NCBI RefSeq assembly: GCF_044647545.1
Contig: NZ_CP172818.1
DNA length: 64,000 nucleotides
From: Escherichia coli
GTDB taxonomy: Bacteria > Pseudomonadota > Gammaproteobacteria > Enterobacterales > Enterobacteriaceae
Reading direction: 5' to 3' (one strand)
Every line of letters starts with the position of its first letter. Within the stretch, counting starts at the first letter, position 1. Under the pieces are notes generated by a model that saw only the letters and a program-made list of their open reading frames with translations, did no database searches and had not been told where the DNA came from. The position numbers and the translations under genes are program-made. Below are positions 46,319-47,314 of this stretch, piece by piece.

Positions 46319-47314
46319 ATGATACAACCTATTTCCGGCCCTCCTCCTGGGCAACCACCAGGTCAGGGAGATAACCTGCCGTCTGGCGCGGGCAATCAGC
46401 CTTTATCCAGTCAGCAACGTACTTCGCTGGAAAGCTTAATGACGAAAGTGACCTCACTGACGCAACAGCAAAGAGCAGAACTGTGGGCGGGTATCAGGCA
46501 CGATATTGGTCTGTCGGGAGATTCACCGCTGCTTTCGCGTCACTTCCCTGCCGCTGAGCACAATCTGGCGCAACGTCTGCTGGCCGCGCAAAAAAGCCAT
46601 TCTGCCCGCCAGCTTTTAGCGCAATTAGGGGAGTATTTACGTCTGGGGAATAATCGTCAGGCGGTCACGGATTATATCCGTCATAACTTTGGTCAGACGC
46701 CGCTGAATCAGCTCTCACCGGAGCAATTAAAAACCATTCTAACCCTGTTGCAGGAAGGGAAAATGGTTATTCCGCAACCGCAGCAGCGCGAGGCGACCGA
46801 CCGTCCTTTATTACCGGCGGAGCACAATGCGCTTAAACAGCTGGTGACCAAACTTGCGGCGGCAACGGGGGAACCCAGCAAGCAGATCTGGCAATCGATG
46901 CTGGAACTTTCCGGGGTGAAAGATGGCGAGTTAATTCCAGCGAAACTGTTTAACCATCTGGTGACCTGGCTACAGGCGCGTCAGACGCTAAGCCAGCAAA
47001 ATACGCCGACACTGGAATCACTACAGATGGCGCTAAAACAACCTTTAGATGCCAGTGAACTGGCGGCGTTATCGGCATATATCCAGCAAAAATATGGCCT
47101 TTCTGCGCAATCATCGCTTTCTTCTTCCCAGGCCGAGGATATTCTTAACCAGCTTTATCAACGGCGGGTTAAAGGGATTGATCCGCGTGATATGCAACCG
47201 CTGCTTAATCCTTTTCCACCGATGATGGACACGTTGCAAAATATGGCAACGCGTCCCGCGCTGTGGATACTGTTAGTCGCGATTATCCTGATGCTGGTCT
47301 GGCTGGTTCGTTAA
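46319..47314 (+). CDS. flk: Flagellar regulator Flk
   Basis: 331-aa ORF with C-terminal membrane anchor; synteny. Confidence 0.85.

Follow-up and report, generated by a model that had tools for sequence, protein, structure and literature searches.

Interlocked stop codons of the convergent genes flk and yfcJ in Escherichia coli and related Enterobacteriaceae

How do two genes that converge on one point end their transcripts when no DNA at all lies between them? This question is raised by flk and yfcJ, which meet tail to tail in the 64,000-nucleotide stretch of Escherichia coli contig NZ_CP172818.1 (assembly GCF_044647545.1) analysed here and called the window below. A first-pass annotation, made from the letters of this DNA alone, had proposed that the two genes share their stop codons without any terminator between them, that each transcript must therefore enter the partner gene as antisense RNA, and that this allows transcriptional interference. 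To address the question we consider the geometry of the junction and the identity of its genes, the state of the same junction in other Enterobacteriaceae, the signals that could end transcription there, and the published transcript data for the two genes.

Geometry of the junction and identity of the genes

The open reading frame list and direct reading of the sequence (47100..47520 inspected) place the TAA stop of flk, a gene of 331 codons for amino acids, at 47312..47314 on the plus strand, in the local context ...CTG GTT CGT TAA CCG CGA..., and the TAA stop of yfcJ (392 aa) on the minus strand as the reverse complement of 47311..47313. The two stops are thus reverse complements of each other offset by one base, and a single tetramer holds both of them in a 4-nt convergent overlap (Table 1). 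The names, the coordinates and the shared tetramer of the first-pass annotation are borne out by the sequence, the ORF list, RefSeq and NCBIfam. The 4-nt palindrome that it described holds for the shared TTAA, but the local palindrome is in full 6 nt long (GTTAAC, 47310..47315), because the last codons of both genes end in GT (CGT for Arg in flk, GGT for Gly in yfcJ).

Table 1. Features at and near the flk/yfcJ junction, in positions of the window
Feature	Position	Strand	Basis
flk CDS	46319..47314	+	ORF list; NCBIfam equivalog NF007987; RefSeq of identical locus
yfcJ CDS, MFS transporter	47311..48489	-	ORF list; NCBIfam PRK12382; RefSeq
Shared tetramer TTAA with both stops	47311..47314	.	Sequence; same geometry in 27 other species
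11-bp hairpin GGACGCGUUGC-CAUAUUUU-GCAACGUGUCC	47227..47256	-	Inverted repeat; minimum-energy fold
Weak terminator-like site CAGCGCG-GGA-CGCGUUG then CCAUAUUUUG	47238..47263	-	Consensus scan
C-rich, G-poor stretch of flk read-through RNA, antisense to yfcJ; candidate Rho loading region	47555..47875	+	Composition
Hairpin and U-run CCGCAUCGCUUUUGCGG UUUUUCUC	48410..48436	-	Scan, sequence; PMC7815308 Supplementary file 2

Both products are matched over their full length by curated NCBIfam models: that of flk by the equivalog 'flagella biosynthesis regulator Flk' (E 3e-152), and that of yfcJ by a subfamily of MFS proteins named 'arabinose transporter' (E 7e-212). The C-terminal stretch of Flk, 18 residues long, is hydrophobic. 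The same 4-nt overlap stands in the RefSeq annotation of an identical E. coli locus and likewise in that of K-12 MG1655 (flk 2437950..2438945, yfcJ 2438942..2440120), whose junction is 99% identical to that of the window. The 2.2-kb flk/yfcJ region is 100% identical in several complete E. coli genomes, and the locus was found, at an identity of at least 95%, in 5424 of 5426. Further, the overlap is not a choice of annotation, because stop codons, unlike starts, are set by the reading frame. Hence the overlap is real and not a chance oddity of one strain. The contrary reading, by which one of the ORFs would not be a real gene, or its end would be mis-set, with no true overlap as a consequence, has no observation in its favour and next to no probability: besides the fixed frame it has against it the full-length curated matches and the conservation of Flk and YfcJ, down to their last residues, in about 60 species, and on these matches and the cross-species conservation of both C-termini we rule it out.

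Six convergent junctions are present in the window, and flk/yfcJ is the only one of them without a spacer; the other five have spacers of roughly 33-71 nt with a predicted hairpin in each, which is weak at yfcH/rpnB. The yfcC/yfcD junction (27005..27037) carries a textbook bidirectional intrinsic terminator, AAAAATGTTAAGAGCCGCAATTGCGGCTCTTTTTTT, with a 9-bp GC-rich stem and a U-run on either strand.

Stop-codon overlaps of 4 nt between convergent genes are also covered by earlier surveys of overlapping genes, and the flk/yfcJ overlap itself has been present in the K-12 annotation for decades. [quoted passage not shown] According to the same survey, from which we took the frequency in E. coli, there are 58 convergent overlaps in this species and 1890 over 58 species; 1218 of the latter are 5 nt or longer, and therefore about a third are 4 nt or shorter. 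The flk/yfcJ pair has the defining features of the class, namely genuine tail-to-tail genes, a tetramer of the form [C/T]TA[A/G] and retention in related genomes, and it shares the geometry of TAA/TAG stops one base apart (PMC2174442). Thus the overlap, its class and its transcript overlap are already known and represent ordinary gene packing, and the minor new detail is that the overlap is limited to one clade and contrasts with the spacers of other genera.

The junction across Enterobacteriaceae

A scan for YfcJ with one genome per species yielded 80 Enterobacteriaceae loci, in each of which both stops were located. The exact 4-nt overlap occurs in 28 loci, with TTAA in 15, TTAG in 6, CTAA in 5 and CTAG in 2; these include the E. 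coli reference (L001), which is identical to the window, and hence represent 27 other species. A spacer separates the stops of yfcJ and flk in 31 loci and measures 26-123 nt, save for the 4 nt of Entomohabitans. In the remaining loci flk lies elsewhere or is absent, or the contig ends, and the adjacency of the two genes has been lost in Kluyvera, Kosakonia and Phytobacter. On a neighbour-joining tree of YfcJ the overlap loci form a single clade of Escherichia, Salmonella, Citrobacter, Intestinirhabdus, a Pluralibacter MAG and some isolates, and the overlap is present without exception in the 28 loci of this clade where the genes are adjacent. Outside it, Enterobacter/Lelliottia/Leclercia, Klebsiella/Raoultella and Buttiauxella/Cedecea are all spacer-bearing.

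The stops of the overlap clade have drifted among the four permitted tetramers but never to TGA, because the geometry requires its absence: the rule of the class excludes TGA on both sides, and the clade uses TAA and TAG alone, whereas species with a spacer often use TGA. With or without a spacer, Flk ends in WLV[R/A]-stop and YfcJ in FR[R/K]x-stop at homologous positions. Given that the C-termini coincide with those of relatives that have a spacer, the overlap would have arisen through a clean deletion of the spacer. This differs from the origin favoured for the class, by stop loss and extension of the ORF (PMC2174442), in that the protein ends remained unchanged.

No homology links the spacers of different genera: those of Enterobacter consist of REP/BIME-like GCCGGGTGGCG...CCTTACCCGGCCTAC units, and in Buttiauxella, Klebsiella and others one finds short GC hairpins, the hairpin spacer of Buttiauxella being 31 nt long. 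In Enterobacter/Lelliottia/Leclercia the spacers of 40-93 nt are REP/BIME-like units (GCCGGGTGGCG..CGCCTTACCCGGCCTAC), single or paired (loci L011, L013, L019, L026, L029, L032, L034, L035, L038-L040 and L042), and they sit precisely between the two protein ends that run together in E. coli; the same slot holds non-homologous hairpin spacers in Klebsiella, Buttiauxella, Cedecea and Raoultella. The presence of non-homologous spacers in one slot suggests a rapid turnover at this junction. On the simplest reading of these comparisons the ancestor of Escherichia, Salmonella and Citrobacter lost the spacer a single time and the merged state was then stably retained, the direction of change (loss as against repeated gain) being taken from a midpoint-rooted, single-gene neighbour-joining tree of YfcJ. 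The retention of the overlap throughout the clade could reflect selection for the overlapping arrangement instead of neutrality. In any case, the clade with the 4-nt overlap and its sister genera with REP or hairpin spacers, having identical protein ends, amount to a small natural experiment on whether spacers and REP elements at convergent junctions affect the expression of the genes beside them.

Termination signals and published transcript data

Our consensus scan detected no terminator-like site on the plus strand from the flk stop (47314) to 48558, and no Rfam family was found in 45000..50000 at E <= 1. Over the region the scan, which is permissive, returned 8 terminator-like sites as against 4.1 +/- 1.8 expected. 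A uniform scan of the 160 nt past each stop showed that sites with a hairpin followed by U residues are scarce throughout the family: among the 28 overlap loci they follow yfcJ in 3 and flk in none, and among the 31 spacer-bearing loci canonical terminators are likewise rare (2 in each direction). Hence the gene pair appears to be independent of a canonical intrinsic terminator in the family at large, and the comparison points to there being no conserved hairpin-plus-U terminator embedded in either gene. Of the elements of a bidirectional intrinsic terminator, a GC-rich stem-loop with an A-tract and a U-tract, the junction offers only one weak and non-conserved candidate, on the minus strand.

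Three kinds of structure were rejected as conserved terminators. The E. coli-specific minus-strand sites at 47263..47238 and 47227..47256 have no proper U-tract, and a stem that spans the stop (47273-85 / 47312-24) is disrupted in both Escherichia sp. MOD1 and E. albertii. A stem at the 3' end of flk in Salmonella and Citrobacter, CCGGTCGCGCCGA...TCGGCGCGAACGGG, was set aside as it has no U-tract and is also present in spacer-bearing Pseudocitrobacter. This predicted long-range stem lies within flk, some 55-105 nt beyond the yfcJ stop, and is formed from the codons for FAP and SARPG (loci L008, L009, L017, L018, L020-L022, L027 and L030 in Salmonella/Citrobacter, plus L078); the choice of codons may have produced it incidentally.

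Rho-dependent termination needs untranslated RNA past the stop but no intergenic space, and untranslated RNA antisense to a gene is a classical substrate of Rho. The termination by Rho of untranslated and antisense RNA was reportedly documented by Peters and co-workers in 2012. In this regard the two read-through RNAs of the junction differ. That of flk has a C/G ratio of 1.2-1.9, with the peak 240-560 nt downstream of the stop, at about the 90th-95th percentile of the window; in the C-rich stretch of Table 1 the ratio is 1.3-1.9 in 80-nt windows, which corresponds to about the 90th to the 95th-99th percentiles of the window. The read-through RNA of yfcJ, with a C/G ratio of 0.6-1.3, lacks such an enrichment in C, which makes a role of Rho less plausible there. 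The published bicyclomycin data set contains no Rho termination region at the flk/yfcJ junction, maybe owing to low coverage (PMC7815308). Read-through here is like Rho-terminated antisense RNA (PMC7815308) in being untranslated, antisense and, on the flk side, C-rich; it is unlike it in that no bicyclomycin-sensitive region is reported at the junction, the nearest lying at the 5' end of yfcJ.

That region, 2440043(-) of MG1655, is the sole entry for the two genes in the bicyclomycin data and is internal to the 5' end of yfcJ (PMC7815308 Supplementary file 2). The reads upstream and downstream of it number 236 and 15 in untreated cells and 266 and 98 with bicyclomycin, for a Rho score of 5.8 (p 4e-12; PMC7815308). 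It maps to position 48412 of the window, which falls on the last bases of the hairpin and U-run CCGCAUCGCUUUUGCGG UUUUUCUC; this site lies within codons 18-27 of yfcJ, about 77 nt into the ORF, and is identical in K-12. It looks like an ORF-internal attenuator that holds yfcJ transcription low in LB. As yfcJ transcription is cut about 77 nt in (236 as against 15 reads), few polymerases would reach the junction from the yfcJ side in LB, and any reciprocal effect or interference is therefore probably small.

As to transcripts at the junction itself, flk-yfcJ is among the 165 convergent excludons of MG1655 reported with ExcludonFinder (NAR 2025, PMC12288877, Table 1), for which transcript boundaries defined by RNA-seq have to overlap in at least 50% of 58 samples. 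Because the coding sequences overlap, such a coverage-based call is nearly automatic for this pair and is silent on any effect. A full-length mRNA must contain its stop and run beyond it, and so it carries sequence antisense to the partner gene. The claim that each transcript must enter the partner as antisense thus agrees with the geometry and with the transcript overlap in at least 50% of the 58 MG1655 transcriptomes (PMC12288877). The first-pass annotation had pointed to strand-specific RNA-seq as the way to check this, and the ExcludonFinder study is essentially that experiment, with the overlap listed, though by a near-automatic call (PMC12288877). The counter-evidence that it had in mind, transcript ends well inside each gene, does not apply to functional mRNAs, since an RNA cut short within the gene that it copies has no stop codon. 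Its statement that no terminator lies between the genes is literally correct, there being no intergenic DNA, but it overlooks Rho-dependent terminators and terminators embedded in the genes, a predicted rho-independent terminator being found in 23 of the 116 genes of E. coli convergent overlaps (roughly 20%; PMC2174442). Finally, the Term-seq tables for three growth conditions assign no 3' end to either flk or yfcJ by label (Adams et al. 2021, PMC7815308), and the SMRT-Cappable-seq supplements have no entry for either gene.

Explanations of the overlap and likeness to known systems

We consider it probable, at about 0.72, that flk/yfcJ is an ordinary compact tail-to-tail junction of the [C/T]TA[A/G] class, which results from neutral compaction and has no dedicated terminator. 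The ancestral spacer would have been lost once in the Escherichia-Salmonella-Citrobacter group, with the stops becoming interlocked, and we infer that the merged state persisted because any indel damages both C-termini and because nothing demands a terminator here. Each RNA polymerase would then pass the shared stop into the partner gene, and the RNA past the stop, being untranslated, would be open to Rho, whose action is more plausible on the C-rich flk read-through than on that of yfcJ. Head-on collisions of polymerases and trimming by 3' exonucleases would lead to heterogeneous 3' ends of low abundance, and the flk and yfcJ mRNAs inevitably have complementary 3' ends, which makes them a convergent 'excludon' in the broad sense. 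Termination at the junction is, in other words, probably dependent on Rho or on collision. A regulatory consequence, be it transcriptional interference, which the geometry permits, or cleavage by RNase III, is possible and would probably be weak.

Two other accounts have to be weighed against neutral compaction without a dedicated terminator, and one of them is that yfcJ transcription stops at an intrinsic terminator embedded in the last 25 codons of flk, at 47263..47238 or 47256..47227. The consensus scan does match CAGCGCG-GGA-CGCGTTG then CCATATTTTG on the minus strand, the minus-strand RNA of 47200-47320 has a minimum-energy fold that is better than that of shuffled sequence (z = -3.2), and the roughly 20% of overlapping genes with a predicted terminator (PMC2174442) provide a precedent. 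However, the U-run of this match is interrupted and stands two bases off the stem, and it is held in the loop of the competing and stabler 11-bp hairpin, which lies 55-84 nt beyond the yfcJ stop in the yfcJ read-through RNA, within flk codons for 11 residues, and has no U-tract after it. The permissiveness of the scan, which gave about twice the expected number of sites, also counsels against reading much into the match. The motif is found in only 2 of the 28 overlap loci, both E. coli-type, and is not conserved outside E. coli proper; the 11-bp hairpin is equally E. coli-specific, not being kept in E. whittamii, E. albertii, Salmonella or Citrobacter. Moreover, Term-seq reports no 3' end there (PMC7815308), and flk has nothing comparable on the plus strand. 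An embedded terminator is accordingly unlikely in our estimate. The 11-bp hairpin could act as a barrier to 3' trimming of the yfcJ RNA.

The other account holds that the loss of the spacer was kept by selection, and that the expression of Flk and YfcJ is made mutually exclusive by colliding polymerases and/or by RNase III acting on the RNA duplex. It can draw on the listing of the pair in at least 50% of 58 MG1655 transcriptomes (PMC12288877), on the 4-nt overlap in all 28 clade loci with adjacent genes, and on the geometry, which ensures overlap whenever both genes are transcribed. Yet the listing is what overlapping coding sequences would give almost by default, there is no evident functional link between Flk, a regulator of a flagellar secretion checkpoint, and an MFS transporter, and related genera manage well when a spacer separates the genes or flk is located elsewhere; the attenuation of yfcJ near its start and the lack of a Term-seq 3' end listed for either gene (PMC7815308) also speak against it. 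We regard this functional excludon as quite improbable, and as a long shot its more specific form, in which a single loss of the spacer was followed by selection of the obligate overlap as a switch, with transcription of one gene damping the other via collision or RNase III. If true, such a switch would tie Flk, the checkpoint protein of flagellar FlgM secretion, to the activity of the YfcJ exporter; and if the overlap does couple the expression of the two proteins, the pair would be one more excludon among the roughly 165 listed in E. coli.

The excludon concept was reportedly introduced by Sesto and co-workers in 2013. Classical excludons involve long antisense RNAs, demonstrated reciprocal expression and related or opposed genes, whereas flk-yfcJ is known from its geometry and from being listed. 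In the set of convergent excludons or overlapping 3' UTR pairs, where flk-yfcJ itself appears with transcripts that overlap at their 3' ends (PMC12288877), the overlap of this pair is forced by the coding sequences, unlike that of excludons set by the placement of terminators in 3' UTRs.

Collision-assisted termination at bidirectional intrinsic terminators that lie between convergent genes was reportedly described by Ju and co-workers in 2019. Such systems face the same problem as flk/yfcJ, that of two converging units which end at one place, and collisions may contribute here too. Nevertheless flk/yfcJ is unlike them, as it has neither intergenic DNA nor a conserved stem-loop, and in the window it is yfcC/yfcD that is of their type. 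According to Wang et al. (bioRxiv 10.1101/2022.10.23.513370), collision-assisted convergent termination needs a stem-loop between the genes to place the collisions.

Under neutral compaction without a dedicated terminator the overlap matters little beyond bookkeeping. It does offer a clean example of convergent genes that lose their whole spacer and still function, and it would illustrate that some transcription units of E. coli end without a dedicated intrinsic terminator.

The surrounding DNA yielded some further observations. The fabB gene has a canonical terminator, AAAAGGGAACC-CGAT-GGTTCCCTTTTT (48652..48678, minus strand; also L082 3785..3895), which the consensus scan missed because the A and T runs are partly taken up by its stem. 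In K-12 this terminator is separated from the fabB stop by an additional REP-like segment, about 33 nt long, that the window does not have (intergenic region of 264 as against 231 nt). Over its first 50 kb the window matches NZ_CP033850.1 at all but one base (49144), and the sequences diverge after about 57.4 kb, downstream of smrB, where a gene pair for an AAA-ATPase and a hypothetical protein is present in NZ_CP033850.1 and absent from the window. At 57422..59340 the window contains what is probably a pseudogene, a yfcO-like region for a fimbrial adhesin that is split into the short ORFs 57493..57897, 57923..58132 and 58060..58233.
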